A stretch of DNA of 51,128 nucleotides from Nemertoderma westbladi (lineage: Eukaryota; Animalia; Xenacoelomorpha). The stretch spans positions 1-51,128 of the forward strand of contig JAUCBJ010000104.1 of the NCBI GenBank assembly GCA_032718475.1, written 5' to 3'. Shown piece after piece: positions 3-27,000 of the stretch (within the stretch, counting starts at the first letter, position 1; every line of letters starts with the position of its first letter). Under the pieces are notes generated by a model. That model did not search any database, had not been told where the DNA came from, and saw only the letters and a program-made list of their open reading frames with translations. The translations under genes were made by a program, and so were the position numbers.

Positions 3-479
3 CGAATCAGCGGCAGATTTTAATACGAGAATTCGGGATTTGTAGTTTGAATCTGTTAGTTTTACTGAATGGAGGTAGCATAGGGCTTTAGATATAGCAC
101 CCGACAGTAGAGAGTCCGTACCAGAGGGCATGGTATTAGTATGCTGAACTGATTTCGAAATATGTTCAGTTAAATTTTCAGATAAATTGGCGCCGATTCT
201 CGTAAATTCCTCGTATTGACCATGACTGTCTGATAAGGTTTTACTTCCGGTATGGGTTTGTCTTGTTTTTTCACTATAAATAAATTCGACGCATTTGGTT
301 CCGGCAGCAATCACGCATATTTTGTTTCGGTAATGCATCAGCATATGGGCGTTTATAAAGGTCATAACGGCTTCGGCTAATGATGTTAGCGTGAATGAGT
401 TTATGTTGTTCGACCACCAAATATGATTACAGTCGATAATAATGACGACGATATTAGGAGATGAACTCTGCGCATCCAT
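3..479 (-). CDS. GTF2H3: General transcription factor IIH subunit 3 (p34/Tfb4), N-terminal 159 codons; runs off window start
   Basis: Manual translation from ATG at 479: MDAQSSSPNIVVIIIDCNHIWW...FTLTSLAEAVMTFINAHMLMHYRNKICVIAA...GQYEEF...DSLLSGAISKALCYLH...YKSRILVLKSAADS. This matches Tfb4/p34 vWA motifs as I recall them (VIVD.N.IWW, N.HL...NKLAVIA, LL.G...ALCYIH, SRILV.K). No stop in 477 nt. Confidence 0.93.
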   Translation of the reverse strand, partial: MDAQSSSPNIVVIIIDCNHIWWSNNINSFTLTSLAEAVMTFINAHMLMHYRNKICVIAAGTKCVEFIYSEKTRQTHTGSKTLSDSHGQYEEFTRIGANLSENLTEHISKSVQHTNTMPSGTDSLLSGAISKALCYLHSVKLTDSNYKSRILVLKSAADS

Positions 480-858
480 TACAGCATTATATACGCTACT
501 AGTATCGCCATATACTGAGACTGACTGACTGATATATATAGTGCAGTAGTGCTGTAGTGTCAGAGTGTAGCAATATCAGAATATAGCATCGGACGGTCCT
601 AAAGCGATACCGGTACCCCCATTAGCCCATCGAGTAATGGCAGTAAAAATGATTTTATTTTATTGGCGGAATATGCAATTATATTCGCTCGCATTTACCT
701 GTTTACTGATTAATATTTACGACCTTTGGTATATTTTATTATCGGATTTATGGAGATGGGCCATTATACTGTTATAACAATAGGCCTAGTGCTGTAGTGT
801 AATAGCTGAATAGGCCTACTGTAATATGCAATAGGATAGGCTGATATGCCTATACTAC

Positions 859-2640: not shown

Positions 2641-4438
2641 TTAAATATATCAAAAACTTCACGATATATTAAGCTAACTGTTTGTAAAAAAAATTATACA
2701 ATTCCACTGCAAGGAAATTTCATAAATTCCATTAATGCTAGTGAAGATTTTTCACATAGGCCTACTTCTGTACTTAAATTGGGATTGCTCTATTGATTTT
2801 AGGTGTAATTTATTTATTTGTTTTAGTTTAGAAACCACAATTGTTTATCATATAACAAATACATTTTTTGGGGATACGGGTTTTTGAGGTCGACAAATCC
2901 GATGGGCGAGGTTACATCCACCCGGTTAGTAGAGAAGTTGTGTAAATAAGGTCCTTATCTGTATATTGTACCAGCAAAATTGGTATTAAAAATGGTGAAA
3001 TTATTAGACAATTTTCCGTTGCTCTGGCAGTCTGGAAACTAAATTGGTAACTATATAAAAGTGCATACTTCTGACAATCGATACCGGTAGTCATTAGAGT
3101 AAAGTTTGTCTGTACCAAATTTGGAGAAAATCCCACCAATAGACCCCTTGTTGCTATGTAAAATCCATGTTGCTAAGGAAAGAAACAGGAAATTGAAGGT
3201 GATCCGCATAATATATTTTTATAGACTTTTTTGGGGGTATTAACAAGGTAATGTAGAATAAAAAAAAATTGGTTTGGATGAATTGCGAATTTGTTATGGG
3301 TTGACCCCCTTTTTTGGCTAGATTGACTCGCCTACTAATTAAAATTACTGAAAATTTATCTTTCACAATCCAAACATCTAAGGGCCACTACGATCACCCG
3401 ATCCAAGCTTTATGTTTACTAGAAGCAATGACGTTGTAGAGTACCCTGTAAAGAAACACTACGACCACCCAATCCAGACTTTGTGTCCTCTCAAGGATGA
3501 CCATAAAATAAAGTAAAGGAGTCAATCAAATAAACTGAGTATTCACGTACTATAATATTGATGAAAATAATGGTGATTTAATGACAACAATTATGGACTT
3601 TCTTTGACACCTGTTACCACGCACGTGATTTGGAATTCACTTTCCTCGTGTGATGTATGAAAAGTCCGGCGTCACCCTGAGGAATGCGTCCGCGCAGACT
3701 GCAGGGTGGTTTATGTTGATGATGCACGGTTGGATTTAATTGAAATTTGTTGAATGGATATGTTAACCTCCTAAAAGATTTATTATGGATTTCATTGTAA
3801 TCATCGCATTGGTTTTCACTCGAGCCCGCTGCTCTCATCGAATTTGTCTTCATTCCTTCATGTTGTTTGTTCCTGTTGGTTTTCACTCTAGGCGGGGGCC
3901 CTGGAGCGGTGTAACGAGCCCGCTGCCATTTCCAACTTGATTTCCCAGCAACCTATCTACAATATGTATTTCCCGAGGATGAAATATTCATACAGCTGAT
4001 GAAAGTTAAAGATAACTGAACATCGTTGATACTATTCCTGAATGGAACTTTGGTTCACCCAACATGGATCTTTGCGACTGATGTGTTAAAGCTGTGAGGG
4101 GTTTACACTCATATATGTTATGGTAGCCTGGGGGCTTTAAATCCTATGATAGCCTGGGGGCTTAAAAACCCAATAATAGCCGCGGGGGCTTAAAAACCAA
4201 AATACCTAAAAAAATACGAAAAATGTTTATAATGAGATAAAAAAGAATATAAAAAGGAGAAAATGATTGGAAAAAGAGAAAAAAAAGGTGTATAATGCGA
4301 TGGAAAATAATATAAAAAGGAAAATAATGAAGTGAAAAAGATAATGATAAAAAAGATAAAGAAATAAAGAATTACTAAAGAACGGACAAAATAAGTCATA
4401 AATAAAAGGACATAAAAAGTCATTTTGAATGTTAATTG

Positions 4439-5542
4439 GGGTAAATCTTTTCGACCTACGCGTAGGCCTACGCGTAGCTACGCGTAGTTTGTAACTTCCA
4501 TTCCTATCATTTACCGGTAGGGCCAGACTTACTGCCTATTTAACAACTACGCGTAGGTGTTTTAAAACTACGCGTAGTTATTTTGGAACTACGCGTAGGT
4601 ATTTTGAAACTACGCGTAGGTGCTACGCGTAGCTACGCGTAGCAGTCCTGATAACAATGATTTTTCATTTCAGGTCCGGTAGGGTTGAGTTGTTAGGCAA
4701 GTATCGGTATATTTCAGGTATCTGATTATCAGACAAGACAAATGTAATAACAGAATCGGAAACTCATATCCCTTCCTTGCCTTTATTAATCCTGTAATTA
4801 CAAACAAACACAGGATGAATAAAAAGTAAACTTAAAATTCACGTCTCATGATTCAAGTATCTTTGTTTCCATTGGATTATTTAAATATTGAACAGTAGTA
4901 AGCTACCAGTCTACCGGTGAAGAGGTTAAGCGAAAGCTGATAAATACTATTATTATATAAATATTGCATAAATATTGATAAATACTGCATATAATCAAAT
5001 TGTTTGGTCAAATAACAAGTGCAACCAATCATGGTAGACAATTTAGTCTCCCCCTGCAATAAAAAGCATAGAGAATCGATAAGAACCATCGGCCTATTTC
5101 CTTTGTAAACTATTTTTGAACTATAAACATTAATTATTAACACATTTTACCGCCCGCAACGCATGAAGTGAAGAATATGTAGTCTTCGCGTATTCCTCTA
5201 TATAGAGTATACAGGTATACAGTAGGATGCATTAATGTTGAAAGCATTTGATGGTTGTGGGTTGTTTATTGAACATACCGAATTGTGTCTTATTTTAGTA
5301 CTGACTCGCTTGGAATACGTAAGCCTACTAATGATAAACGACGTATAGGCATAGTTATGGGTAGCACCTATGCGTAGCTCGCGTAGGACCTACGCGTAGG
5401 ACCTACGCGTAGCTACGCGTAGCACCTACGCGTAGTTATTGTTAAAACTCTGAAACCGGTGATATATGACCCAATGTTGCGAACTACGCGTAGCTACGCA
5501 TAGCTACGCGTAGGCCTACGCGTAGGTCGAAAAGATTTACCC
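4439..5542. mobile_element. MITE family A, long copy (GG..CC ends, 8-9-bp TSD; Merlin- or MULE-like)
   Basis: Long TIR GGGTAAATCTTTTCGACCTACGCGTAGGCCTACGCGTAG; 9-bp TSD TGTTAATTG (4430-4438, 5543-5551); many CTACGCGTAG subterminal repeats. Confidence 0.9.
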
Positions 5543-5807
5543 TGTTAATTGAAAGCTTATGAATTAACGTGGAAAGTACTACTGGCCTACAAATCAGCAA
5601 TATACCTAATTCAGCAATGCATAACAGGAAAGACAGTTGCTGTGGAATCAGTATTTTCCAGACCTTTGATTTCTGGATTTTGTAACTTTCCTATTTTCAC
5701 CTGCAACAAATTAACAGAATTAATTACTGAATTACGTAACTATGACAGAAACATTACTGCACGAAATAGAATGGTATATTAAACTATTATGATATCACCA
5801 GCCCAGA

Positions 5808-6788
5808 GTGGAGGACTTTAAACAACATTGGAAAGAGCAACTAGTGGAGAATGTTCGAGTATTAAAGATCACCGGTCGAGAGGATGTCGATAGGAGGAAC
5901 TTGCATGCCCTGAAACTTTCTGGAGCTAGTACGAGCCTGAAAAGGACTCGGAAAGTAACGGAGGTGGATGGGCAGTGCTCGTTCTGGGAGGCCTTTAAAG
6001 GAGCCGTTGATGAGACAAGTTGCATTATCGACCGCGGTTTCGAAGGAACTCGAACTTAGGCGCTGCCAGGAGTTTATCGACAGTCACCCGACACTACTTG
6101 ACTACTACGGCGATCTTCGACAGTCGGAGGTGTTGTGTTCTACGCGGGTAGAAGATATAAAGTCTATGGAAGCCTACCAGGCGGAATACAACTCACAGAA
6201 CACCAGTCGATCAATGGTTGTAATCTTCGGCAAGTTTTAATCTGCCGAATTCCTCCACAATCCGAAGATAGACTGGTCGGAGCGTTATGGATCATACCCT
6301 CTGATATAAGAAACCTAATACTGCACAATGGGATCATCAAGATTGGCTCTGATATTAAGAGCGATCTACGTAGCGACTTTATCAGTGCGCTGAAAGATCG
6401 CAAACGGAAACTGGATGTCCTCACCCTAAACAACTTTGTCGATATGCAAGTGTTGCTTGCCTGGATGAGACACAGTAACTGTATGCAACCGTTCCGAGAC
6501 ATTAAGAAGAATAAGACCAGCTTAGGGTATCTAGCTGTACTGAATGGTGGTATCGATTTCAAACCCTACCGGTTCCAGGATTACCTTAAACTCTATCTCG
6601 GCCATGATGACCTATACGTTTCATCCAGGAAAGACCCGCATTGGTGCGATGTAGAGCGGGACTGTGCAATGTACTACCAATGGGAAAACCCCAGCGAACG
6701 ACACTACATATACGTCACCATGGAGTCGTTCACTTTCGGGACCTTCTGCTGTCGAGCGTTGAAAGCCTTAATCCAGTTACAACCCTGA
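5808..6788 (+). pseudogene. Frameshifted DEDDy-type 3'-5' exonuclease gene (copy 1, divergent)
   Basis: ORF 6135-6788 has IPSDIRNLILHNGIIKIGSDIKSD (ExoII region), FVDMQ, KTSLGYLA, and YQWENPSERHYIYVTME (ExoIII-like), collinear with 10367 and 40414 ORFs. Upstream part is split over three frames, so the 5' boundary and ExoI are uncertain. Confidence 0.72.
5903..5978 (+). ncRNA. Solitary copy of structured RNA motif found in the 7.7-8.5 kb array
   Basis: Core AGTA-CGAGCCTGAAAAGGACTCG-GAA (core 5932-5950) closed by ACTTTC/GGAGGT and GCATGCCC/GGGCAGTGC. Expression is not shown. Confidence 0.55.
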
Positions 6789-7712
6789 TCGTTCGACAAA
6801 TGCAGCCTGAAACAGGTTGCCGATCACGCCTTCCAAGCGGTTATCGACATCACGCTGGGAGAAACCCAGTCAAATAAACCCCAGGAAGTGGCGAAAGACA
6901 TGCCAACAGGATATTTCACCTTCCCGGAGGTGTTGGTAAAGAAGAAGAACCTCGCTTTAGCCACCAGGATCTCATTCTTTCCGCCATATTATTCGGACCG
7001 ACGGAAGTTATACGGCGTCTCTATTCGTACCGAGAGGAACTGGGATATGACCAATGGTTCCTTATCGCCCAAAAAGGAGAACTCGATAGACACATCGATC
7101 AGACACCATTGCCTCCCGCAAGCCCAGACAGGAGACAAGTGATGATGGTTTCCACAGTTTCCGATGAGCCTCCACCGGCAGCAGCACTCGATGAGGGGAG
7201 ATGGGCTAAGAAGAGGAAAACCTATAGAGAGAAGCACTCCAAATAGAACTCCCAAGGAACATTGTACCGTATATTTTAGGATTTCATATATAATAAATAA
7301 ACTCTAGGACTAAATAATAACTAAATAAAAACTGATAAAATTATGGAAAATGCCCCCCCCCCCCCCCCCCCCCCCCCCCCGCAGCTCCAGGAACGACGCT
7401 GCAAAGGGTCATTTGGGTGGAGTGTTCGCGTTATTTTCAACCTGGCCCCGGGTACCCACCGAATCACAAACTCATTCCAAATGAAAATTCCAAATATACC
7501 CGGGGATGGTGGGCAAAAAACTAGAAGTCTATAAAACCCAAAATTATTCGATTATGGGCTGTTTTCCGGGAAGGCTGACTATCAAATTGTCAGCTTTCCA
7601 AGGTTAAAAGGTGGCCCTGATATTCAAGGAATCAAGTACTTGGCTTCAGGTAGAGATCCTGACAGCCTAGCCTAGGCCGTGCGTCCGAGCCTAGAGCGAA
7701 GGGACAACCTAT

Positions 7713-8500
7713 TCCCCAGTGGGTTCTTTTACTGTGAGTAGTACTAGCCTGAAAAGGACTTGGAAACAAGCAGACCAGGAGGCCACGCAGCGGGAATTTG
7801 GTTTGAACTTCTCGGATTTCCCCAGTGGGTTCTTTTACTGTGAGTAGTACGAGCCTGGAAAGGACTCGGAAACAAGCAGACCAGGAGGCCACGGGGAAGG
7901 GAGGAGGGGTCAGTGGGAAGGGAACCGGACTTTGGACCGCCTGCGCGGTGCGCTAGTTCGCTGTGCGTAGTACGAGCCTGAAAAGGACTCGGAACCAATT
8001 GGCATAGCGCTCCGCAAAGGACCGACACTGACGGAGCGGGGTTTGTGATCTACGGAGTTATTACGAGCCTGAAAAGGACTCGGAACGCAACGGAAATCGC
8101 TCTCCTCTGCTCGCACGACCATGTGACTTACAGAGAGGATTATGGTCTACGGAGCTATTACGAGCCTGAAAAGGACTCAGAACGTGACGGAAAACCATAT
8201 TTCCTCCCTCGACCGACAGACATCGACGGACGGAGTGGTTTGCAGTCTACGGAGCTATTACGAGCCTGAAAAGGACTCGGAACGTAACGGAAAACTGCAT
8301 CCTCTCACCAGACACTACGGATATTAACGGACGGAGTCGACAGGTAGCTGACGGAGCTATTACGAGCCTGAAAAGGACTCGGAACGTAACGGAAGCTGTC
8401 TATCCTCACCCGACACCGACGGACAGAGCAGACTGCAGTCGACGGAGCTATTACGAGCCTGAAAAGGACTCGGAACGTAACGGAAGCTGTAGCCCCTCGC
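7713..8500 (+). repeat. Array of eight ~91-123-nt units with conserved hairpin core and variable but self-complementary flanks
   Basis: Core CGAGCCTGAAAAGGACTCG (or single/double variants) starts at 7744, 7850, 7973, 8064, 8161, 8261, 8363, 8454; flanks differ between units but pair across each core. Confidence 0.9.
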
Positions 8501-9566
8501 CAGACATGACAGACACCGACTAGACATGGGTATCAAACGTAGTTGGGGTGGTTAAAATCATATAAAGTAAGTCTGTCGTCCTATAAAGTAAATACTAAAT
8601 AAATTGTTTGTACTGTAGGTTTATTACTGATGTATGTGTTTATTCTAATTATTTGGTGTATGGGAGCCCCAAATTATTCAGAATCAGATTGTGAAGAATT
8701 AGTTGATGCAACAGTTCGTCTAAGGAATCAGTTAGCAGTGAATAAATTAACATTCAATCCAAACTATTCTTTTCTCACGATCTGCATTACAAATCCTAAG
8801 TTTCCCCAACACCAATAATTCCGGTGAATAGTATTTTGGGATCTAGCGCAACCCCTGGGAACTTACATCGGCGTCCATTCCCTTGATTCAGGAACTGACG
8901 GCAACAGTTCGCTATACCTTATTATGCAGGATGGCCCTCTTCGTGTTCAATAAGTTCGAACACATGTGATAAACAGAATATCACCTGTCGTAGGAGTGAT
9001 AGACGATATATCACTAAGAACAGGTGATATTCTCTGTGTATAATAAATAGGTAGGCATAAGGCATATGCCAGGCCTACGCCCTACCGATATTATTATTAA
9101 TTAATAAGTAAAACTAATATTAAATTAAATCAAATACCTGGTTAAAGTAGCCGTCCGTAGGCTCTAAATTAATTATTGGGTAAATAAAATTATGAACTTA
9201 TATTTCAGAATTGTTACTTTGTCTTTATGTTTAAAACTTTACTTTATGTTTAAAACCTAATAAATCATCGCCCTGCTGCTGGTTTAGGTTTTAACTTCAT
9301 CCTGTTTTGCGGTCTCACTGAAACAGACCGCGTAGAAGCAAGAGTCGACATATCCACGGCGGCATCAAAACTCCACTATAAGAGCCGCGACATGTCCAAC
9401 ATGAGACAGACACACCTCTCGAAACCAACCACTCCACGTGCAACGCGCCACCCACCATTCCCACCCACCCTTGTTTGTTGGCGCAACCCCAAATCCTCCC
9501 AGAAACCGCCGCCCACCAAGTGAAAAGGTGACTAGACGAGTACTATAGTCACCGACACCCACCAAT

Positions 9567-10109
9567 GGATCTAGGACACTTCCCCCCCGGACAGTTCACC
9601 CTGGACACTTCCCCCTCACCCAAGTAGGACACTTCCCCCCCGAACACTTCTTGCAACAATTTGAAGCAGTTTTTGGCACAATTTGAAGAAGACTATTATA
9701 ATACCTATATTTAAAACAATTAATTATTATAATTCTATAGTTAATAAAAACAGTATATCATTCGGGGGGTGGAATTTATAGGTCATCTAATTAATTGTTT
9801 AAAGATTAGCAAACAATACGATGTAATTGCATTGATAAAACCCATAAATAAAACTTGGATACAAAATGTAAAATCCGGATGCCAAAGATCACTTTCTGAG
9901 CTAAGAAAGGAAAATTGGATACGACTTGTCTGGATACAAGCGGTCCGTTTACCCTACAAAATTAAAAATAAGAATGTGCGAAGTTAAGAACAGTTGGGGG
10001 TGTGGAAGTGTACAGGGGGAAGTGTCTGGGGGGGGGGGGAAGTGTCTGGGGAGGAAGTGTCCTACTTGAACGGGGGGGAACTGTCCGGTGGGGGAAGTGT
10101 CCGCACACC
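9567..10109. mobile_element. MITE family C, copy 1
   Basis: GGATCTAGGACACTTCCCCC.../...GGGGAAGTGTCCGCACACC ends, subterminal GGACACTTCCCCCC repeats, TSD CCACCAAT (9559-9566, 10110-10117); interior homologous to 24900-25545. Confidence 0.88.
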
Positions 10110-10366
10110 CCACCAATCTCAAGGAAACGACACCCGGCCCATACAAAACGCAACCCCCCACCACATCACCGATTCACTATCCCACCCTACACCGACACAC
10201 CCCTTGTAACTTCCCACTTACATAACAATACAGTACTAATTTCCAAACCTCCATTACCGACATCCAATCAGACAACCCCAACCACAGACAGAACATCGAT
10301 CTGCACCCATTCTGGACCTTACAGGTTCACCCCCCTAATACCCCCCACAATACAATTACAATCGAT

Positions 10367-12607
10367 TTGAAGTATAGAGATCTACCTAATGCTAGCGAAT
10401 GCGCCACCTTGTGGCATCCAGTGGGAATGACTCTAGAAAACGCCACTAAAGAATGGAACGAAACTCTTAACGTTATCGAGATGTATAGAGTTGTCACTTA
10501 CGATAACGAAGGTAGCGTTCCGGGTGGAGAACTGGGAACTACTCGCATGATACATATACGAGGACTAGCTGGTTCTACCCACGTATTTACTCGAGCGTGT
10601 TCCGATGTGATTGATTATTCTTTTGAGACCCTCACCGAGATACAAAAGAAACTCCGACATGGACAATTCGAACTCGCGCAGCGTTACGTCACTGACACCG
10701 AGCGCAAACCGGCCATGGGTATCGATGGATCGATGTTACCCCAGCCCGTGCTCGAGATGTTGTTTAATGAAAGAATCCTTAAAATCGGCTCAGCTGTTTA
10801 TGGAGATCTCCAAAACGACTTTAGGAACATGGAGAATATCCCATATCCTTTTGTAGATACTCAGCTGATTGCTCCCTGGGCAGAAGGCCGAGGTTTCTTC
10901 CGCACTATGTATGCCAATACACCCAGCGGCATTACTAAAGTACAACGAACCTCCATCGGACATCTTGCCTTTCAAGAATACGGATGGAATTTCAAGGTCG
11001 GAAATCCTATCAACTATCAACAAGTATATGGAGATCATTATTCTCGATTATACTTTGACGGACCATTGACCGCACCTGGCGTCATGTATAGCTTTATGAG
11101 TATTCCACTTCGTCCCTCCTTAGCTATATACACGATCTTTGAAAACGCCGCACTTGCCGGTTGGCTAGCCGATGTGTGCAGTCGTACTATACGTGCCCAT
11201 CCCTTAATACTTGGAACCAAACTCGCCAAGCTAGATGAACACAATAAATTCATCCGCTTCGAATGTTTCAGGCACTTTCTGACTCCGTTCCGTAACGTTG
11301 ATAGTCAGTTCAAGGACCGCGCTCTGACTAAGCTCAGCCTAAGAGACTCAGCAGCTGAGAAGTTAGACAGCGCCGGATTCGCCATTTTCAAAGACGTTTG
11401 TATACAGAACTTACATTCCTCTGTTATACAAAGACCTCGAATACCCACGGGTTATTCTATCGTGGAAGTTCAGACAGTGGGTTCGCTTGAGGAGACAGCC
11501 GCACCTACCTCAGCTATGCAATTGGGAGACGAACCAATATGTTTAGAATCCGAGGAGATTCAGCCTACAGCGCCCCGGAGCAGCGACAACGACTACGTCT
11601 TAGAATGGTATCAAGGTCCACAATGTCTCACCGCATACGATTATCGGCACGCCAACTATGTTTCTCGAAAACGTTGCCGATTATACGCATCGAGAGATCA
11701 TCTCACCCCCATGGACTCAGACGTACCCTGCTCCTATTTCCACGAACAACCGGCGATGGAAATCTATTGTGCGTATTGCAGACTCAATAACTTGCACATT
11801 TTCGCAGTCTGCCCCCAATTTATGACTTAATGTCATCATTGTCAACTTAAAGGACATGCCAGTTTTGATTGCCCTTTTAACCGCGATCTGGAAAGCGTAG
11901 ATGAGATGATTACCCTGCGCTACATCCGAGCTTGGGAAGCGAATGCGGATTTACATTGTGAGTCACGCCATCGCTATTACCCTGGACGCGCCTACGAAGG
12001 AGTTTATGCGTTCCATCCTTATCTATTCGCGTCTGTTGAACAAAAATCACGCACACCGAGTTACGAACTAATGAAGCGTGTTGGTGAGTGTATTTCCACG
12101 AAATTTGTTCGTAAATATCTCAGGAACATCAATCCTAACGATATTAATTCATACAACTTGATCAACTTCATTCGTCAAGACCCGGAGTATGGTGATTTGT
12201 TCATCAACTCGCATCCAGAGTTGCAGGAAGTACATCGACGGCCCTACGAATATCGAGCCCGAACTGAACGTGAGTTGGAAAGAACCATTAAACCGAGGAA
12301 GTTTCTCACCACTCACGGTCCACCTACCGCTATCGTTCAGACGACTCGTCAGGGACCAGTAGGAGCTGCTGTCCTAAAATGCGCTCTAAAAGCCATTAGA
12401 CCTCGCTCCACTGAGGTTGATATCGATCAACCAGGTACCTCGACCGGCGGATACACCGACCGTAATCCTAAACCTTCCGATGCAATTGTATTGCACCCTT
12501 CACCCAGGAGTTATAGCCCCCCTAGTAAAGTGGCTCGCCCCAAAGAGAAAAGGACTCTTGCTAGCCTCAAAAAACTGCGTAAACGCCGTCCGCGCAAGAA
12601 AGACTAA
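10367..12607 (+). pseudogene. DEDDy-type 3'-5' exonuclease + CCHC zinc knuckle gene (copy 2), ~746 codons with one in-frame stop
   Basis: VVTYDNEG (ExoI), LPQPVLEMLFNERILKIGSAVYGD (ExoII), FVDTQ, PLRPSLAIYTIFE (ExoIII-like); CAYCRLNNLHIFAVC-PQFMT*-CHHCQLKGHASFDC continues in frame past TAA 11828-11830 into ORF 11906-12607; basic C-terminus KKLRKRRPRKK. True start unclear. Confidence 0.85.
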
Positions 12608-12685: not shown

Positions 12686-13871
12686 TGTAAAGGCTTTTGC
12701 GGTTCTAGCTAGTCATTTTCCCCGCTAAGTACTCTGTAGGTGTTTTAGCGGACATAAAAAGCCGTTTTCTTACTGTGTAGGTGTTTTAGTGGACATAAAA
12801 AGCCATTTTTCTGTATGTGTACTTTAGCGGACATAACAAGCCATTTTATGCCACAATACTCCAAAATACTCTTAATACAGTGTAGTTCAGATGACGACAT
12901 CTATCAGCTGATATGTCCACGTAGAGCTTTTCTTTGTTCTTTGTTCGGCTCGACCAATCAGAGCGATTTTCATTTTATTTGTACAGAAGCCTCCGGGAAA
13001 TCGCGCAATGCATTATGGTCTTTGTTTACCTTTTTTCCTGAGCCCAGAACATCGGCTGTGGAATTACTCTGTGTTTCAGACTTTAGCCAAACATTAGAAC
13101 GGCTTTGATCATAGAAACGTATAACTGTTATCATATCAAGTCACACATTAACTCATCATATTATATTATACATACCTTTCACCGCATTATTTTACTGCTA
13201 TTTACTGTCGGTTATTAATTGTTATCAGGATGTTTGATGGAATGTTGTTATATTTGGAGAATATCGATAAATAATCATAAAACCCCAATCTTCTTGATAT
13301 ACTAAAGGTTAGAGAGACCGATTACATATAGCAATTGCGACTTACATTATAGTGGTTTTGGAGTGAATTGAATGCTATTTCATAGGCCCTACATGTGTCA
13401 ATTGCTGTTCTCTTTATATATGACTAAAATTAGTGAAGGTCGGCAGATCAGTGTACAGCAGTGTGCGGTAGTGTGCATGAGTGTGATAGATAACAAAGCA
13501 TTTCCTAAAGAATGCGCTTTATACGTGAATCATTAGCCATCCCGTTGTGTTTAGTGTAAGTCATAACTCTGTTTACATACTTAGAGCGCCACGTCCTAAA
13601 GGAACTGTTAATATTTCCCGAAAGTGAATAATATTTGTCAGAGATTATATATTAACGATCAATCGAATAGTACAGTAGGCCTACACCGCAATAAGGTCAG
13701 AGCATCCGAATCCAGTCTCCCTTAACCGTGGGTGAATGATCGCGCATAGGCTGGCTTCGGCTAATGTAGCTTTATGTGTATCAAATACTTGTTATAGGCT
13801 AAAGTCGATTTATAACCTAGAAGACACCTAAATTTGGCAGGTTAAACTGCTAAAGGTCTAAAAGCGCGAAC
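12686..13871 (+). repeat. Possible LTR following exonuclease copy 2
   Basis: Short purine tract GGGAGCGG then TGTAAAGG ~80 nt after the ORF stop; non-coding until the junction with the truncated BEL element at ~13870 (…GAACA). No second copy in the window. Confidence 0.25.
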
Positions 13872-13977
13872 AATCACCACGATAGCGCAGGCACTGCCAA
13901 TCTGGCTAAGAAACAAGTGGAGGAAGATCGCCTTCTCCACCCAGGAGAAGAAAGGTGCGGAACCGGGCCTAGAAGAA

Positions 13978-15804
13978 ATGTCGAACTTCCTCAATTATGA
14001 GGCAGAGTTGATTACAGACCCAGTCTACAGTGAGGATAGTTTGGGGAAGGCACCAAAAGCTGAATACAACAGGCCTAAACCCGAACACAGTCCGGCGGAT
14101 CCATTCCCGAGAGTGAGACAGTCGCTACCACATGCGGCCATGCAGGGGACTGCTAGTCCACAGTTAGTTGGGAGTAGGGCCACACAGTGGCAGGGACAGA
14201 AACAAAATAACAACGCAAACAAATATAATCCCAACACACCCTGTAGGCCGAGTCCAAATAACCAAAACACTAAACCGGTAGATATGAATCTACGCGCAAT
14301 ACGTGAAGGGTTATACAGGGAGCGCTACAATCCAGGATACGAATGTCAATTGCATAGGGATGGAACCCATAAGACCATGAGTTGTAAGCAATGGCAAGCG
14401 TTGCCTAAACAAGATCATGTAGCCTACGCGGATACAAATGGACTATGTCATCGATGCGTGGTAGAAGGACACAGATTCGGAGAGTGTAGAGAAACACCGA
14501 TAGGAGACGATGAGACTGGAGGCCAAACCATGGCTACGAGCACAACGGGAGCAAGGAGAAAGAGGAAAGTACTACTTGGGGTAGTACCAGTGAGGATAAC
14601 AGGAAAGGGCGGCCGATCAGTCACAACATTGATGTTGGTCGACAGCGGAGCAGCCTTCACACTGGTGGAGAATTGGCTGGCCGAGGAGATAGAGTTACAG
14701 ACGAGGCCGAGTAGGATGGCAGTAACTACTATCTCGAGCAAGGATGAGGTCCTGGAGATGAGGACGGGAAGGTGCGAGATATCAGCAATAGCACCAGGAT
14801 GTGATTATGGGGCGGCCATTGACTCCATACAGATAATAGAATCGATTAACATAAATGCCAGGCGACCCACTAAAATCAAGGTCGAGCAATTCCTGGACGA
14901 TATCGATTTCTCAATACCGGAAGTGGATGTCTCGAAGGTATCCATCATAGTCAGAATGGATTGTCCGACGGCCCACGAGAGAGTAAGGACCATATTCGGA
15001 GAGAATAAGCAGCGGGATCCGATGGCGATTCTCACGCCGTTCGGATGGACGCTTAGCGGCCCAATTAAAACCAAGATTCCACTCAGGGTGTCGGAGACAT
15101 CAGGGTGCATGCTATCAGGCACTGTTAAGGATGAAGAGGAGAAAGCAGAGACGGGCGATGGGAAGGTCCCATGTGACAAGCGGCCCGGGGAAGGATACCA
15201 GGAGTTGGGTATGGATCTGGAACCACGCATAGTGGAGCTTGGTGAAAGGATAGAGGATCGTTCCAGAGAAATACCATCGGTAGATGAAATAGGAGGGGAA
15301 GCTACAGCAAGAGTGTGGGTGGAGGAGAATGGATTCGACGCGGAAGACTTAGAGACGATGGGATGGGACAAGGATGTTCCCGGCAACTATTGGTATGAGG
15401 ATGGAGAAGAGTGGATGGTGAGATGTCCGGAAAAGTGTCCGGAGGAGATGCCGGTCCGGTTGAGAAGCATACCGAAATGGGGAAGGTCAAATAAGAAGAC
15501 AGGGTGGAAAGGGATAGGATTACTATTATCCATTCTGTTTTATCTATTCTTTCTATTTCTTTTCATTCTACCGCCAGGTGACGACAAGATGAAGGGTGGC
15601 ATTTTGCTGCCAGGGGACCATGAGGAAATCAAGAAGGCGACCGAAAGACCCGATTTTAGGGTGGTAGAGGAGGGAGAATCAATTCCTAGAGAGTTGGATT
15701 TGACGAGGAGAGTGGGGCGAAGGATAAGAGGACCTACAGGCGGGCAGTGGGAGAGTGCCTGCTGGAAGAATCGATGGAAGATCAAGGAATACCTTAGAGT
15801 TTAG
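13978..15804 (+). CDS. Truncated Gag C-terminus + aspartic protease fused to an unrelated acidic/hydrophobic tail
   Basis: CQLHRDGTHKTMSC and CHRCVVEGHRFGEC knuckles, LMLVDSGA protease site, AILTPFGWTLSGP; homology to the full element stops at ~15120, then ~225 aa including GIGLLLSILFYLFFLFLFIL. Confidence 0.8.
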   Translation: MSNFLNYEAELITDPVYSEDSLGKAPKAEYNRPKPEHSPADPFPRVRQSLPHAAMQGTASPQLVGSRATQWQGQKQNNNANKYNPNTPCRPSPNNQNTKPVDMNLRAIREGLYRERYNPGYECQLHRDGTHKTMSCKQWQALPKQDHVAYADTNGLCHRCVVEGHRFGECRETPIGDDETGGQTMATSTTGARRKRKVLLGVVPVRITGKGGRSVTTLMLVDSGAAFTLVENWLAEEIELQTRPSRMAVTTISSKDEVLEMRTGRCEISAIAPGCDYGAAIDSIQIIESININARRPTKIKVEQFLDDIDFSIPEVDVSKVSIIVRMDCPTAHERVRTIFGENKQRDPMAILTPFGWTLSGPIKTKIPLRVSETSGCMLSGTVKDEEEKAETGDGKVPCDKRPGEGYQELGMDLEPRIVELGERIEDRSREIPSVDEIGGEATARVWVEENGFDAEDLETMGWDKDVPGNYWYEDGEEWMVRCPEKCPEEMPVRLRSIPKWGRSNKKTGWKGIGLLLSILFYLFFLFLFILPPGDDKMKGGILLPGDHEEIKKATERPDFRVVEEGESIPRELDLTRRVGRRIRGPTGGQWESACWKNRWKIKEYLRV

Positions 15805-15899
15805 TCATCCAATACGTTGGACTCAGATGGGTGGGAATGAGGGCGAGACGCCCTTCCCACACAAAATATAAAATAAATAATAAAAATAATAATAAGAAG

Positions 15900-16620
15900 T
15901 GAGATAGTAGAAAGTTAGAAAGTAACAGTAGTAGAAAGTTAGATAGTAGGTAGCACTAGTTAAGAGTTAGTAAGAGTTAGTAAGAAGTTAGAAGTTAGGG
16001 AATGTGGTATATAGACATACCACGAGAGTAGTAGCATGGTACATAGTACCGGAGTAGCAGGGTACATAGTACCGTAAGAGTTAGAAGTTGAGGGCACTGA
16101 GGCTTTCCAGGCACCACGTAGTAAGAAAAAAGGGAGTATGGTATGTAGGTATACCATAGAAGTAGCAGTAGAGGGGTTGTGGGCACCGAAAGCGCCACGT
16201 AGAAAGAGAGTAGAGGGTATGGTATGTAGGTATACCATAGAAGTAGCAGTAGAGGGGTTGTGGGCACCGTAAGCGCCACGTAGAAAGAGAGTAGAGGGTA
16301 TGGTATGTAGGTATACCATAGAAGTAGCAGTAGAGGGGTTGTGGGCACCGAAAGCGCCACGTAGAAAGAGAGTAGAGGGTATGGTATGTAGGTATACCAT
16401 AGAGGTAGTAGCAGAGGGGTTGTGGGCACCAAAAGCGCCATGTAGAAAGAGAGTGAAGGGTATGGTATGTAGGTATACCATAGTAGCAGTATTAGGGTAC
16501 ATAGTACCATAGAAGTTAGAGGTTGTGGGCACCAAAAGCGCCACGTAGTAAGAAAGTAAAGGGTATGTAGGCATAGTATAGTAGTAGTAGGGTACATAGT
16601 AAGAAGGAAGAAAGGTAGAT
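15900..16620 (+). repeat. Internal tandem array of element 2 (five 81-bp units plus GAAGTTAG / GGTACATAGTACC flanking repeats)
   Basis: ATGGTATGTAGGTATACCAT recurs at 16138, 16219, 16300, 16381, 16462; each unit has inverted repeat TATGGTAT..ATACCATA. Confidence 0.92.
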
Positions 16621-16686
16621 AGGATAATAGCACAGACAGGGGGGAACATAAGAAAAATAAATTAAAACTAAAGAAAAATTGGCACT

Positions 16687-18647
16687 TTGGGGGTGGTAGA
16701 GAACACAGGACATTGTGGAGCAGTGGGGATGGGCCAGCTCATGGGCCTTGTCTGCCACAAGCCGATGGACTGGGGCAAGTTCTGGGAGGAGCATGGAGCG
16801 GGCAGGGGACATTGTGGAGCAGTGGCGATGGGCCAGCTCATGGGGCTTGTCTGCCACAAGCCGATGGACTGGAGTATGTTGCGAGAGGAGTACGGAGCGG
16901 AGCTGGCGAACTCGCTGAAATGGGGAGCGAGGCCAGGGAAACAGGAGGTGTATCAGTTCCGGAGAGGAGCGATAAAGATATATCAGAAGAGATATATCCT
17001 ACAGGATGACTGGATAATGATAGGTTTACTAAACCTATTCATGGCCGTGGTTATCGGAAGAGAGCCGACAGCGTTTCTGCTATCAGGAGCACCTCTAAAC
17101 TACAGAAGAGCCTTTAAGGTGGCCTTCGAAGGTCTTGTAGACCACCCGGAGCTGAAGGGCAAGTCGGTGTACTACAACAGCCAGCACCTAGTAGACAGGG
17201 AGGTGGATACACCATACAAGAGATGGGAGAAGCTGGAAGCGGATAGACTTGAGGAGAAGCGACTGGAAGAAGTCGCCAGGCGAGAAAGGAGGGAGGCAGA
17301 TGAGAGAGAGGCGGAGATTAGGGGAGAGGACTACGGGTTCGAGGCCCAGACCTTGGACGAGCTGAGGTGGGTATCAGGGAGCTCGGGCGAGTTTCTGGGG
17401 GAGGACCTAGGATGGACGGAAGAATCGCCAAAACAGTTGACATCGGGATTGCAAGCGATGCCCATGCCAGCGGGCTCTGAGGGCGATTCCGTAAGAAAGA
17501 GACCGAGGGAACAGGAGGGATGGAAAGTTACGGGTAGAAGCCAAGGCAGAAAGGGACACAGTGGGTCTACCGGGATACTGGGTCTGGATCCACTCCCGGT
17601 GATGGAGGGGGATGACGACGGGTTCGGGGAGATGCCGCCCATCGGGGGGATCGGCCGCTGAGATATGGACTGGGTGGGCGGGAGAGTGGTGACGGCCAGC
17701 GGGGCGAGGGCCTTCTGGGATAAACCCGGCAAGCGAACCTGGGTGCACGAGGAGCCAGCGATGGATTTCGCGGGGAGCATCATCAGGTTGGGCGAGCAAC
17801 TGTGAACAGCACCACGGGTAGTGTTTGGGGAGACAATGCCAAGGCGGGAGGAGGACGTAGATATGGATAGAGACGTTAATGTCCAGAAGTTTGCTTACCA
17901 ACGGCTCCACAGACCTAGGAGACCGCTCGGGGCAAAAGACGACTTGGGGCGGGATGCGTTGATACACGGCTGTGATTACTGTGGGAGTCTGACTCACCAG
18001 GAAAAGAGCTGTTTGTATCGATTTCAGAAGGGGATGAGTTGCCTCTACTGCCGCGAGTCGAGCCATAGGATGGGAGCATGTCCGAGGCTGCACAACTGCT
18101 GATCAAAGTGTAACTTCCGAGGGCACTATGGGCGCCAGTGCGAATAGATGGACGATGAGGAGAAGTTTAAGATCTTCGAGGAGTGGGCCGACGTTGGCGT
18201 TATGATGCGACAGAGGATGAAGGCCCAGGAGTTCCGGTGGGGTTTCTTCAACATCAATCAGGAAGCCCCACATACCAGGAGGAAGCGACAGCGGCATCGT
18301 ATGGAGGAGTCATCAACACGCAGAGGTATTTGGATCGATGGACGCCAGAAAACAGAGGAGAGTTTAGGGATTTTCTGGCGGAGCACGTGCCGCGAACGAT
18401 GAAAATGATATTGTGGAACGCTACCAGGGGGAAGCAGGAGGGGCATTCGGAAGGGCCACCTGCAAAGCGTTACCGGGAGTTGATAACACCAGCGCCCAAA
18501 GAATCGACCACGGGAATTAGCAAGGCGGTAATGGCGAGAATGAGGAGTCTCAGGGAGGACAAGCCAGAGGGAAGGAAGCGACCCAGACAAGACGATGACA
18601 GGGGGAAAGAACTAAGATGGTTCCTGAAGACGGGAGGAGCGAACTAG
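16687..18647 (+). pseudogene. Decayed exonuclease-Zn knuckle ORF (copy 3), close paralog of 40414-42948
   Basis: Near-identical peptides (GAVAMGQLMGLVCHKPMDW, KRYILQDDW, CDYCGSLTHQEKSC, CLYCRESSHRMGAC); lacks first ~220 codons, has a 99-bp tandem duplication at the start, in-frame stops (17661, ~17805, 18102, ~18147) and a frameshifting deletion near 18265. Confidence 0.93.
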
Positions 18648-19292
18648 GACTCAAAGGGGAAATGTGGGCGTGCCTGGAAGGCACCACATAGGGGAGTATA
18701 TATACGAACTCCTAAGTGCAAAATATAACTAAGTGCAATTAGTATGTATGTATGTAAATAATCAATATAATCAGAATGAATATAATCAAAGTAAGTACTA
18801 TAGTCATATACAACCTTTTCCAATTAGCTACTGGGATTGGGGACCACTTGACTACAATCGGACGAGACTTAGACGGATCCCACTAACATGATGCACACAT
18901 GTGTGGGACCCAATAAGTGCATGAAGGATGAGAACCAAAATGGGTTGAGTACGAGGGAAGTATGGAGAGGAGGTGTTGGCGTGTGTGGAAGTGAGAGGAG
19001 TGCAATTCAAGTGTGGGGAGCGAGCAGTAAGAGAGAGAGTAAGGGACGAAGAGGTCCGAGAGTAAGATTAGAGAGAGGATCTAGAAAATTGTGCGAAGAG
19101 AGTCCACAATTGTCTCGAACAGAGACCCCAGATACCTTGGTGCAACATAGCTCGCGATTGCACCAAGGAGGGGTAGCAATAACATACCCAGGAGGAGCGG
19201 CCTGGAAAGCCAACCCCGAGAAAAGAACTCCACTCCACACCCGATAGTAGATTGGGTTCTATCTTCTCACCGGGAAGATAGCATGGGGGGAG

Positions 19293-19735
19293 TGCAAGCA
19301 GATTCAATTCCACTTCATTACCCACCAGAAAATGGGACTTGTGGCATTTTAGCAATATGTTGGGGATACGAGATTACCAATATTAATCTCGTATCACAAC
19401 CAACATTGGGGGGAGGGGGGGGGGGGCGACACAAGCCCCAAAGCCACAGAGAAAGGTGAGAGGTCAAAACCACCTCGGAGGGAAGGCAGCTAGTAGAGGC
19501 TAGCAGCACCGGTCATAGTTAATGACCGCCACCACCATACCGGTAATAATTAACTTGTATTTTCTGCTTATTATCTACTGGCGTGCTATTATCGTCCATA
19601 TTAATCAATATCGAGAGACAACAGAAACTCTTACTGTTTTTCCCCAACGGCCTCGGCCAAAGCTACTAGCACGATCCCCAGCAGAACGGTGATGCGTACA
19701 TTTCTAACCCGGTCGGGATCTCTGATCCCGTCACA
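19293..19735 (+). repeat. 3' LTR of element 2 (443 bp)
   Basis: Begins TG immediately after GATAGCATGGGGGGAG (same PPT context as 43641-43657) and ends GATCCCGTCACA exactly like the full element's LTR. Confidence 0.85.
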
Positions 19736-24000: not shown

Positions 24001-27000
24001 AATAATTTACCGCAGACTCGAGCAACTCTGTTGATTTCTTAACTTCCATAACCTCCGATTCAACTGGTAAAACCGGCATATTTCGGCTCTCAACTAAATT
24101 CTGAATAAAAATATGCAAAGGATTTAATACACGAAATTAATATTACAGTCAGAATTAATAAATATGTAACATTATCGTTTTTTTTCAGAAATGGAAAAAA
24201 TTAATAAATACCTGATAAATAACCGATACCAGCCACCGATACATTAAACCTGCGTCGCCTTAAGCTGCCTTACATTGGATAATTCTTACTGTTAAGGCCC
24301 GGGTTACACATAAACATTCAACTTTCAACATTCAACTTTCAACATTCAACATCCAACATTCAACTTTCAACTATCAACTTCAAATAACTACTGTACATCC
24401 CGGTTCACTTCAAACATTCAACTTTCAGCTCATAAAAATTATTGTATATATTGCTTAGACGAGATATAAAGGGTTAAACAATTTTCAGTTGGCAGTTATA
24501 AAAATCTGTAGGCCTATTGTTTTAGAGATTATATGTGTTTTTTTTATTTTATTTAAAGTAATAATTGTTCATATGGATAACTAAATCGATGACGTAATAT
24601 TAACATAATTATGCCTTACATAGGCGGCGAAATTAACGCCGATATTGGGTTCACCCGATCAATCACGAAAGATTGTTGTACGGCGTTATCAGAAAACTTT
24701 ATCAAGATTTGCAGGCACATGTTATAAAAGAAATAAAGGAATTTTTTATTTATTATACAGTTACGAGAATGTCAATTCCATCCTTTGATGAATTGCTCTC
24801 ATCTATAGAACAGAACCGCATATATAGAGATAGCAAGTGGAGGAAGTCTATACCGGACTATGCAAACCTACTTCTAACTTTAAATATAAAGTATATAACG
24901 GATCTAGGACACTTCCCCCCCGGACACTTCCCCCCCGGACACTTCCCCCCCGCCCAAGTAGGACACTTCCCCCCCGGACACTTCCCCCCCGGACACTTGC
25001 CCCCCGGACACTTCCCCCCCAGTTAAAGTGTTAAAATTAATCTGGGTGCATCAAAGCAATAAACAAAAGTTAAAGATGGTTGGTTACAGGACAAGTTGTA
25101 TCTAGACAAGTTTTTTCAAAATTATAAAAGAAAAATTTTTATAGGCAAATTTTGTTTATTTTTCTTTTAATTCCTTTAATTCTAATTAATTGTTTAAAGA
25201 TTAGCAAACAATATGATGTAATTGAATTGATAAAACCCATAAATAAAACTTGGATATAAAATGTAAAATCGGGATGCAAAAGATCACTTTCTGAGCTACG
25301 AAAGGAAAATTGGATACAACTTATCTGGATACAGGCGGTCCGTTTACCTTACAAAATGAAAAATACGAATGTGCGAAGTTAAGAACAGTCGGGGGGGAAG
25401 TGTCCGCGGGGGGGAAGTGTCCGGGGGGGAAGTGTCCGCGGGGGGGAAGTGTCTGGGGGGGAAGTGTCCGGGGGGGAAGTGTCCTACTTGAGCGGGGGTG
25501 AACTGTCCGGGGGGGAAGTGTCCGGGGGGGAAGTGTCCGAACACCGTATATAACATAAACTTATGTTATACTGTAGCTGCTATAATTTATAAACATTACT
25601 TCTGATTGGCTGTCAATGCTGGAAATGCCAGCTTTCCACTTTCAAGTAAGATAGAACATAGGACTAGTGCACTTTGAAAGTTGAGAGTTGCATGTTGAAG
25701 AAAGTTGACTGTTTATGTGTGAACGTCCCCATAGGCTACAATATGTTCTATCTTTTAATTGAAACTTGTATGTTGAAAGCTCATGTGTTACCCGGGCCTA
25801 AGCAATGAGGAGCTCTAAAATTTGAGTGGCATCCCATTACTGAAACCCAGATTCACCCTGCAATCTCAAGCCTTACAGATAGTGGGTACTATATAACACA
25901 CTAAACTATTACACCTGACACCAATACAAAAAAACAATCCTAATTATTATGTGAAAAATATCCTCTAACATTTGTGGAGATTATTAAATTTCCTAGCAGT
26001 GAAATTGCCTAATTTTTGCATCAGATACTTTAATTTATTGGGTAATTTTTGATGCAATTAAAAAATACATGACACTTCTAGTTACGGAGATATAGCTCAA
26101 TTAATTTGCGACAACTCAGGCTAAATGTATTCCATTCCCATTGAATCAGACCTTATTGCAAAATTAATTAAATTATTCTGAAACTTCACTTTTTTTATCC
26201 TTATCCTCCACTACTCTACCTTACTGTAATGACATTTAATATTATTATATGCCAATTTCTTTAGGATTTCAAGCAACAATGTTCCACTACAAATATTTTT
26301 TGGAGAACGGGATACTAGTCACACATTTGGCACTACTTTCACAATTTTTCAATAAGCCACTCCACACCACAGCATAGTAGTAGATAAACTTTTGGTAAAA
26401 ATAAACCAAAGGGCTAACTCTGAAGCGATAGCAGCCAATGAGTGACGCCGTTGCCATTATGCCAGCCATATATTGGTGAAGGGTCACTTTTTATATGCTG
26501 ATGGGCCACTGCCAAATCTTGGGGAGGGAGGGGCTGTCACCGATCTACAATACTATATCATTATGGTTAGGATTTATTATGATTAGGAATTTATGTTTGG
26601 TTTTACGTTAGATTGATTGTACTATACACATTAATCCATTATTCTAGCTATTAAATTTCAAATTCAAATATTTAATTGGTTATTAGGCCTATTGATATTT
26701 AGATCCTAAAATGGAATCGAAGAAAACCCGTTTCATCATAGTATGGTATGGTATTATTCATTATAATATAGTAATGGTAATGATATATGTGTTATATTCC
26801 TGTTTACCTTCATATATTTTGACAACAACGGCCCTCTAGGGAGGGAATGCGAAACGAAAGTTCAGATGTTGCGAATAACACCCAACGTCGCCAACCAATG
26901 AAACGGAACTCACACAACAGTCCATGATAAGATATAGGGAATCCAAGTGTATGTCAATGTCAAAAGGCAGCGAAAAGATTAGCATACTTATCGTGAATAT

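Follow-up and report, generated by a model that had tools for sequence, protein, structure and literature searches.

The RcRE of HERV-K lies in U3, is confined to the RNA's 3' end and binds a protein encoded by the element for export (PMC6916052, accessible part of the text). A different kind of module is described, in the portion available of PMC10886601, for the TRIMp3 elements Cassandra, Ajax and Helenus, in which one 5S- or tRNA-derived Pol III promoter resides in the long terminal repeat (LTR) of an element shorter than 1 kb. On the protein side, the accessible text of PMC13186709 presents Egalitarian as having a DEDDy-like domain that can help bind RNA stem-loops, two stem-loops raising the efficiency. 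The bdelloid Vesta and Juno LTR elements and the Terminons carry a DEDDy ORF3 after pol, for which RNA 3'-end processing was proposed, and what DEDDy ORF3s do in retrotransposons was still described as an open question in 2017 (PMC5408684, part of the text). Two further sources mention, in the parts available, DEDDy ORFs or hammerheads and no hairpin array of the kind described below (PMC6431247, PMC6338049). Our literature search found no published description of such an array in main texts and, among chiefly non-subscription papers, none of the barely described cis-acting RNA elements of invertebrate BEL/Pao retrotransposons.

The window

The window, by which we mean the whole stretch of DNA analysed (51,128 nt of contig JAUCBJ010000104.1, forward strand, from Nemertoderma westbladi), is eukaryotic, as indicated by Tfb4 at its left end and by an intact BEL/Pao element. 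The Tfb4 (TFIIH p34) frame is divergent (3-575, minus strand, 191 uninterrupted codons) and gave no match among longer proteins. The intact BEL/Pao element (29776-44194) is recent: its two 537-bp LTRs are identical, and it shows a 5-bp duplication. A second BEL copy (13846-19311), about 72% identical to it, is internally deleted and broken. Other repeats include a non-autonomous element (4439-5542) that has inverted termini, shows a 9-bp duplication and is Mutator-like in that respect, another inverted-repeat element in two copies (9564-10103 and 24892-25552), its subterminal repeats being 15 nt long, a 13-nt minisatellite of 160 copies (44389-46473) and a 147-nt tandem repeat (49579-50446).

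A tandem array of hairpin units

The original prediction described eight structured units with a conserved core every 91-123 nt, and this description was borne out at 7744-8454. The array units are predicted imperfect hairpins of 80-98 nt each, arranged in tandem, with core-to-core spacings of 106, 123, 91, 97, 100, 102 and 91 nt, and the stems that had been quoted for them are found in the sequence. A ninth core, at 5932, lies outside the array in what we call the solo unit. The units are as follows, AGUA/GAA and AUUA/GAA denoting the two motif types discussed below:

7744, 7850, 7973, 8064, 8161, 8261, 8363 and 8454, plus strand: starts of the array cores (n = 8)
5896-5985, plus strand: solo unit, AGUA/GAA type, non-coding, 5' of an ORF3-like frame (z -3.47; 64.6 bits)
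7707-7802, plus strand: unit 1, AGUA/GAA, almost a duplicate of unit 2 and carrying a U.U mismatch in its core (z -0.46)
7810-7907, plus strand: unit 2, AGUA/GAA, with a GGAA loop (z -4.69)
7941-8019, plus strand: unit 3, AGUA/GAA (z -1.23)
8034-8112, plus strand: unit 4, AUUA/GAA (fold, arm alignment)
8122-8218, plus strand: unit 5, AUUA/GAA, with a C.A mismatch closing the core (fold, arm alignment)
8228-8309, plus strand: unit 6, AUUA/GAA (fold, arm alignment, DNA contigs)
8328-8418, plus strand: unit 7, AUUA/GAA (fold, arm alignment)
8421-8501, plus strand: unit 8, AUUA/GAA (fold, arm alignment)

The 22-nt core is exact in six of the nine units and departs by a GGAA loop in unit 2, a U.U mismatch in unit 1 and a C.A mismatch in unit 5; GGAA is the sole loop variant, as had been claimed, and keeps the GNRA form. 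A degenerate 26-nt pattern had nine matches in the window and none in 100 shuffles. A covariance model built from the nine units recovered the same nine and no others at 64.6-81.2 bits, these being its own training sequences, and the next match in the window scored 11.9 bits. A coding role was rejected for the array, which has 9-10 stops in each plus-strand frame, and for the solo unit, across which two stops fall in one frame.

The likeness to CRISPR that had been noted resides in the eight copies of a near-identical 26-mer, roughly regular and separated by spacers of 65-97 nt. The spacers are related: spacers 3-7 are 53-68% identical to each other and spacers 1-2 are 56% identical, compared with 43 +/- 4% (maximum 53%) after shuffling. 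No cas genes were found among the ORFs scanned; 13 of the long ORFs of the window yielded Tfb4 and Pao domains only in Pfam, PADLOC returned one weak DrmA match (E 0.008) in six frames, and an Rfam CRISPR-DR28 match of 13.7 bits fell off the core. The array is not CRISPR: it belongs to a eukaryote, its spacers are homologous and can pair with each other on either side of a repeat, and the scanned ORFs include no cas gene. The expectation that the units belong to no known Rfam family held: Rfam 15 gave no match at threshold in the whole window, and chance-level ones alone at E up to 10. For the minus strand, a histone stem-loop was considered and rejected, Histone3 giving no match at E up to 10.

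Predicted anatomy and the loop-E signature

The predicted tip of each unit consists of a GNRA loop on a stem of 3 bp, below which an A bulges from the 3' side and 4 bp follow. Below the tip, AGUA (solo unit and units 1-3) or AUUA (units 4-8) faces GAA. Beneath this segment come 2-3 bp, an internal loop that is small and rich in purines (GA/AA in most units) and finally the basal helix, which is long and variable. The arrangement of AGUA or AUUA against GAA, flanked by helices, is the signature of the sarcin-ricin or loop-E motif; it occurs in nine of nine units (four AGUA, five AUUA) and was missed in the earlier reading of the sequence. According to the part of PMC1865062 available, the sarcin-ricin motif has AGUA/GAA as its seed, and AUUA-GAA, when modelled, agrees with it to 0.9 A. 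We infer that the signature would form this motif in three dimensions, and it is the strongest indication that a particular RNA shape is maintained. The sarcin-ricin/loop-E motif is a recurrent module and not an RNA family, and by Rfam the surroundings of the units are not those of 5S or LSU rRNA. At 8673-8698, near the 3' end of the LTR-like repeat described below, ATTA...GAA recurs at the same distance of 23 nt and with a stem of 4 bp; this second pair is weak and possibly due to chance.

Evidence for selection on pairing

Cognate outer arms had the lowest summed duplex energy among all 362,880 pairings of the nine units, and were also the best of 5040 pairings when the near-duplicates 1 and 8 were left out (seven units); the own 3' arm was the best partner in eight of nine rows, unit 1 preferring the arm of unit 2. 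These figures, and those for the basal helix that follow, lean favourable and are not clean probabilities, because the arm windows and basal-helix registers were chosen after the folds had been seen, the registers by hand, and the nine units, related by duplication, are not independent samples. In the basal helix of units 4-8, 29 of 30 cells hold canonical pairs (5 G-U, 0 A-C), both sides change in all six columns, and two of 120 arm permutations, the identity included, reach 29 canonical cells. The middle helix has double-sided change in two of its four pairs, with a covariation score reached by 2 of 500 shuffles. The apical core is different. Five of its seven pairs are invariant and the other two depart by mismatch only, so that the core is without covariation support, and no compensatory change was seen in it among the nine units of the window. 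The covariation lies in the basal and middle helices, a correction to the co-varying stems originally proposed.

The z-score was better on the plus strand in eight of nine units, and that of the whole array was -3.95 on the plus and -0.9 on the minus strand (40 shuffles); units 1 and 3 fold weakly. RNAalifold, applied to a gapless alignment, found only nine pairs, since between units the register of the basal helix moves by one position. With DNA parameters the units fold as well, the energy being roughly halved. Arm pairing, the G-U pairs and the strand bias support the earlier claim that selection has acted on a plus-strand RNA structure, as opposed to minisatellite drift, and the predicted RNA structure of the units is well supported.

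An LTR-like repeat around the array

The array lies within a repeat with the following features:

7423-8906, plus strand: LTR-like repeat of 1484 bp, TGTT...AACA (termini; boundaries in DNA runs)
7412-7422, plus strand: purine-rich tract at the position of a polypurine tract (sequence; multi-copy contigs span the tract)
7530-7535, plus strand: upstream TATAAA, which if used places the array in R (sequence word)
8561-8653, plus strand: candidate promoter and polyadenylation block, with TATAAA at 8561 and 8582, AATAAA at 8598 followed by a stretch of 74% G+T
8728-8746, plus strand: initiator-like word at 8728 and a second AATAAA at 8741 (sequence words)

The boundaries were traced in four DNA runs, which represent at most three samples and three studies and in which copies are seen through contig summaries. 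The right edge appeared as a boundary at 8906-8908 in all four runs, and the left edge as heterogeneous loose ends before 7423 in three of them. Past 8906-8908, other copies of the next repeat have a different upstream sequence in common. The TG...CA termini and the preceding polypurine tract of BEL/Pao LTRs are present at 7423-8906, and a similar G-rich tract precedes the 3' LTR of the intact BEL element. A complete BEL/Pao element would have paired LTRs and a 5-bp target-site duplication; the flanks of 7423-8906 differ, as they would around the 3' LTR of a 5'-truncated element. Because the window holds no second LTR or gag-pol of the array's family, including upstream of exonuclease copy 1 (see below), the assignment to BEL is indirect, based on the termini, the purine tract and the type of ORF3. 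We take the repeat to be a likely 3' LTR, belonging to an element of BEL/Pao type with exonuclease copy 1 in its internal region, and describe the array as a structured cis-element in this likely LTR. In the three deeper runs, summed depth was about 380-2700 in the non-array LTR bins from 7476 and about 100-1300 in most exonuclease 1 bins; depth is not copy number, and the higher LTR values are consistent with solo LTRs.

The position of the array within the LTR depends on where transcription starts. Use of the words at 8561, 8582 or 8728 would put it in U3, and use of the TATAAA at 7530 would put it in R. Three of the four candidate promoter words and both AATAAA words, which we take to follow the consensus promoter and polyadenylation motifs, are 3' of the array. 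In the intact BEL LTR, TATAA at 30041 is followed by an initiator-like word at 30069, past the midpoint of the LTR. On these words the array probably lies in U3.

Two other aspects of the LTRs were observed. The 5' LTR of the intact BEL element is followed by GTA and not by a TGG primer-binding site (30313-30320), and at a loose end behind 8908 in run X4 a contig of the array LTR family continues in like manner; priming may be unusual. A strong short hairpin at 7569-7598 (window z -3.7 on the plus and -3.4 on the minus strand) lies about 40 nt after the TATAAA at 7530 and would sit at the 5' end of the transcript if that word were used.

Copy variation and other contexts of the core

In three of the four runs, joints within single contigs pass over the array completely (7670 to 8540) or over the greater portion of it, and other joints leave out parts, so unit number varies and LTR copies with zero units exist. 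Genome-wide, DNA contigs revealed four core variants, each below 2% of summed depth and all unpaired changes. The 32 nt of unit 6 that hold the loop-E segment and the tip (8253-8284) reached summed depths of 25,000-49,000 in three runs, compared with 3,000-9,000 just outside, a value inflated by overlapping short contigs. Loose ends revealed at least two other sequences flanking the core. The core clearly occurs in contexts other than the array LTR and is not specific to it, and the loop-E segment and tip are possibly a module common to several repeat families. The other flanks of the core, seen as loose ends, are partly complementary if they come from the same copies.

The exact core pattern had no match in viral, metagenome and prokaryotic collections. 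Relaxed patterns matched 29 viral and 27 metagenome loci, all of them single matches; all four variable pairs were canonical in one of the 56, and the best model scores were 23.6-23.7 bits, compared with 64.6-81.2 for the training units, for which reasons we treated these loci as chance.

Exonuclease-like ORF3s

The window contains exonuclease-like frames on both sides of the array. The one on the 5' side is:

6102-6788, plus strand: exonuclease copy 1, a broken ORF3-like frame with a break near its start and a stop at its end (tblastn, alignments)

Copy 2 (10226-12607) has one stop between its zinc knuckles and a basic, arginine-rich end. The two copies are distant homologues (tblastn E 6e-7, 27% identity over 111 aa). 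The predicted structure of copy 2 has a mean pLDDT of 56.8, the domain blocks lying mostly at 55-90. The model aligned with Nibbler (Z 13.7, rmsd 3.5, 199 residues aligned) and with Egalitarian (Z 12.5, rmsd 3.9, 202 aligned), with Z-scores of 12.9-13.7 across Nibbler, WRN and RNase D. As modelled, copy 2 has a DEDDy (DnaQ-like) fold, and homology suggests the same exonuclease fold for copy 1. The predicted catalytic motifs D-x-E, D and Y...E/D are kept in copy 2 and in the ORF3 of the intact BEL element; the open frame of copy 1 is without the first of them. Copy 2 had no match among 4614 candidate proteins or in PDB sequences. The intact BEL ORF3 (40396-42945, 850 codons) has DEDDy-like motifs and zinc knuckles and is not recognised by Pfam. 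A search of 1.84 billion representatives gave 75 relatives. The matches run mainly over the zinc knuckles, and D-x-E, D and Y...D/E motifs are shared by many of these relatives. Searches with an ORF3 relative and with pol found no related loci in viral contigs. A similar ORF occurs in nematode BEL elements; our literature search retrieved no paper describing it.

The original prediction placed the array upstream of exonuclease copy 2, in an array-then-exonuclease order mirroring that of the BEL elements, and neither point was supported. The array is in the LTR-like repeat that follows copy 1, and another repeat begins at 8907; copy 2 lies beyond that boundary and beyond the separate inverted-repeat element at 9564-10103, and it belongs to a different repeat than the array LTR. 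The pol-ORF3 arrays of the BEL elements (39064-39914 and 16114-16483) are unrelated tandem repeats with periods of 34 and 81 nt and no match to the hairpin model. Co-occurrence with the exonuclease ORF, the proposed check, gave the hairpin at one of the four ORF3 regions of the window by the covariance model, which indicates no general link between hairpin and ORF3 there. The solo unit ends about 120 nt 5' of the open frame of copy 1 and has an ATG (5968) at its base. The frame that this ATG opens contains two in-frame stops, and the upstream frame 5959-6237 had no significant match to an ORF3 profile.

Proposed role and alternatives

The likeliest use of the array is, we infer, multivalent protein binding. 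Our preferred reading is that the tandem, structure-conserving hairpins in the likely BEL/Pao 3' LTR serve as a multivalent protein dock for RNA export, stability or packaging, a proposal that we regard as evenly balanced between right and wrong. Docking fits best because a fixed non-canonical tip is set on a stem that need only pair, eight times over and near the likely 3' end of the RNA. The fixed tip would be the surface read by a protein, and the basal stems would be held to pairing only. If in U3, the array would, like the HERV-K RcRE, be copied into RNA from the 3' LTR alone and come to lie in the 3' UTR, immediately ahead of the poly(A) signal, and tandem duplication of units would add avidity. 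Candidates for the putative binder are host proteins and the DEDDy-fold ORF3 of the element itself, and the solo unit 5' of ORF3 might be bound by the same protein and regulate ORF3 expression. A more specific version seems to us unlikely: the BEL-type family would encode a Rev/Rex-like pair, new to Belpaoviridae, in which ORF3 binds the eight hairpins in the 3' UTR and the genomic RNA is protected, exported or packaged, the solo unit acts as an autoregulatory operator, and several of the host's repeat families exchange the module. Its logic of one copy in front and many behind is that of iron-responsive elements.

The location of the solo unit about 120 nt before the open ORF3 frame, with the ATG at its base, could instead mark a translation element (IRES-like or an enhancer) that drives or represses the ORF3 cistron, the array acting from R and the 5' UTR, where the TATAAA at 7530 could place it, or from the 3' UTR. 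Among viral IRESs, both loop-E and GNRA motifs are found. Against this stand the frame opened by the ATG, with no significant ORF3 profile match, the lack of an IRES family match in Rfam and the promoter words, most of which are 3' of the array; we consider it unlikely, if somewhat less so than any of the other alternatives. Another alternative is an enhancer at the DNA level, made of transcription-factor sites and with hairpins as a by-product of palindromic repeats; tandem enhancer repeats are common in U3. An invariant core suits a site read as sequence, and units 4-8 and the solo unit contain Myb-like (YAACKG) and ETS-like (CGGAA) words, as we take these motifs to be defined. However, the basal arms change on both sides and yet pair, with five G-U and no A-C combinations, units 1-3 keep the fold without a Myb-like word, and both halves of a non-canonical RNA motif are in register in all nine units, which makes an enhancer decidedly unlikely. 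The tandem imperfect hairpins of 80-98 nt also resemble the clusters of Pol III hairpins in foamy virus or BLV, and could be a source of small RNAs or a decoy for Dicer or Drosha, a ribosome-inactivating protein, or factors binding 5S rRNA or the sarcin-ricin loop (SRL). In favour of this, the first eight letters of the units are presumably those of the rRNA sarcin-ricin loop. Conservation is nevertheless opposite to that of a pre-miRNA, the tip being fixed and the stem variable; there is no B box on the plus strand, T4 runs lie inside units 1 and 2, and no 5S, LSU or miRNA match had a meaningful score. We hold this use to be improbable.

The variation in unit number, with some copies lacking the array, the core variants that resemble decay and the folding with DNA parameters at about half the energy would all speak for a neutral minisatellite, or for a structure on which selection acts solely while reverse transcription leaves the DNA single-stranded. 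The pairing of cognate arms, the G-U bias, the retention of GNRA and the loop-E signature speak against both, and leave this explanation quite improbable. Least credible of all is that each unit is an unrecognised self-cleaving ribozyme. Hammerheads can occur in retroelement terminal repeats (PMC6431247, accessible text). AUUA/GAA is also found in loop B of the hairpin ribozyme. Neither strand contains the core word of the hammerhead, and no ribozyme family exceeded 11.1 bits, against a cut-off of 37.6 for the twister model concerned, so that the earlier suggestion of self-cleavage found no support in searches for the hammerhead word and the Rfam ribozyme families. Moreover, the position that we take to be that of the catalytic adenine of the hairpin ribozyme is C, G or T in the nine units, and no conserved junction or pseudoknot was seen.

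The array offers a naturally covarying, multi-copy RNA module of 80-98 nt with a recognisable (predicted) three-dimensional motif beside a DEDDy ORF, usable as bait for the binding protein and for testing whether ORF3 recognises its own RNA. The array is also a candidate for a new Rfam family.

Comparison with known systems

The closest working analogue is the RcRE of HERV-K, which, as far as the accessible text describes it, shares with this locus the presence of a structured RNA element in an LTR. Here, in contrast, there are eight separate tandem hairpins and an internal solo copy, the element is apparently of BEL type, and no Rfam family matches. The RmRE of MMTV is a related retroviral response element, and RxRE and CTE are further ones. 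Cassandra, Ajax and Helenus resemble the locus, in the portion of their description available, in carrying an RNA-gene-like module inside the LTR. They differ from it in that the LTR alone measures 1484 bp here and combines conserved pairing with no 5S or tRNA match and no plus-strand B box, the latter two being the grounds on which a Pol III module of the Cassandra/Ajax type was rejected.

The Egalitarian-BicD signals (K10 TLS, I-factor ILS) are, in the accessible text, bulged stem-loops that work better in pairs and have a DEDDy-like binder. The units described here have a G-C-rich tip, a loop-E motif and segments of 2-3 bp; their predicted anatomy departs from that of an Egl-BicD localisation signal as characterised in the available part of PMC13186709, and this candidate was rejected. 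The ORF3 of the bdelloid Vesta, Juno and Terminon elements shares with the frames of this window the character of an extra exonuclease ORF after pol. The ORF3 described here is on BEL/Pao elements and comes with zinc knuckles. Copy 1 is preceded by a hairpin unit and followed by an LTR-like repeat holding eight more, an array of a kind that the accessible part of the bdelloid text does not mention.
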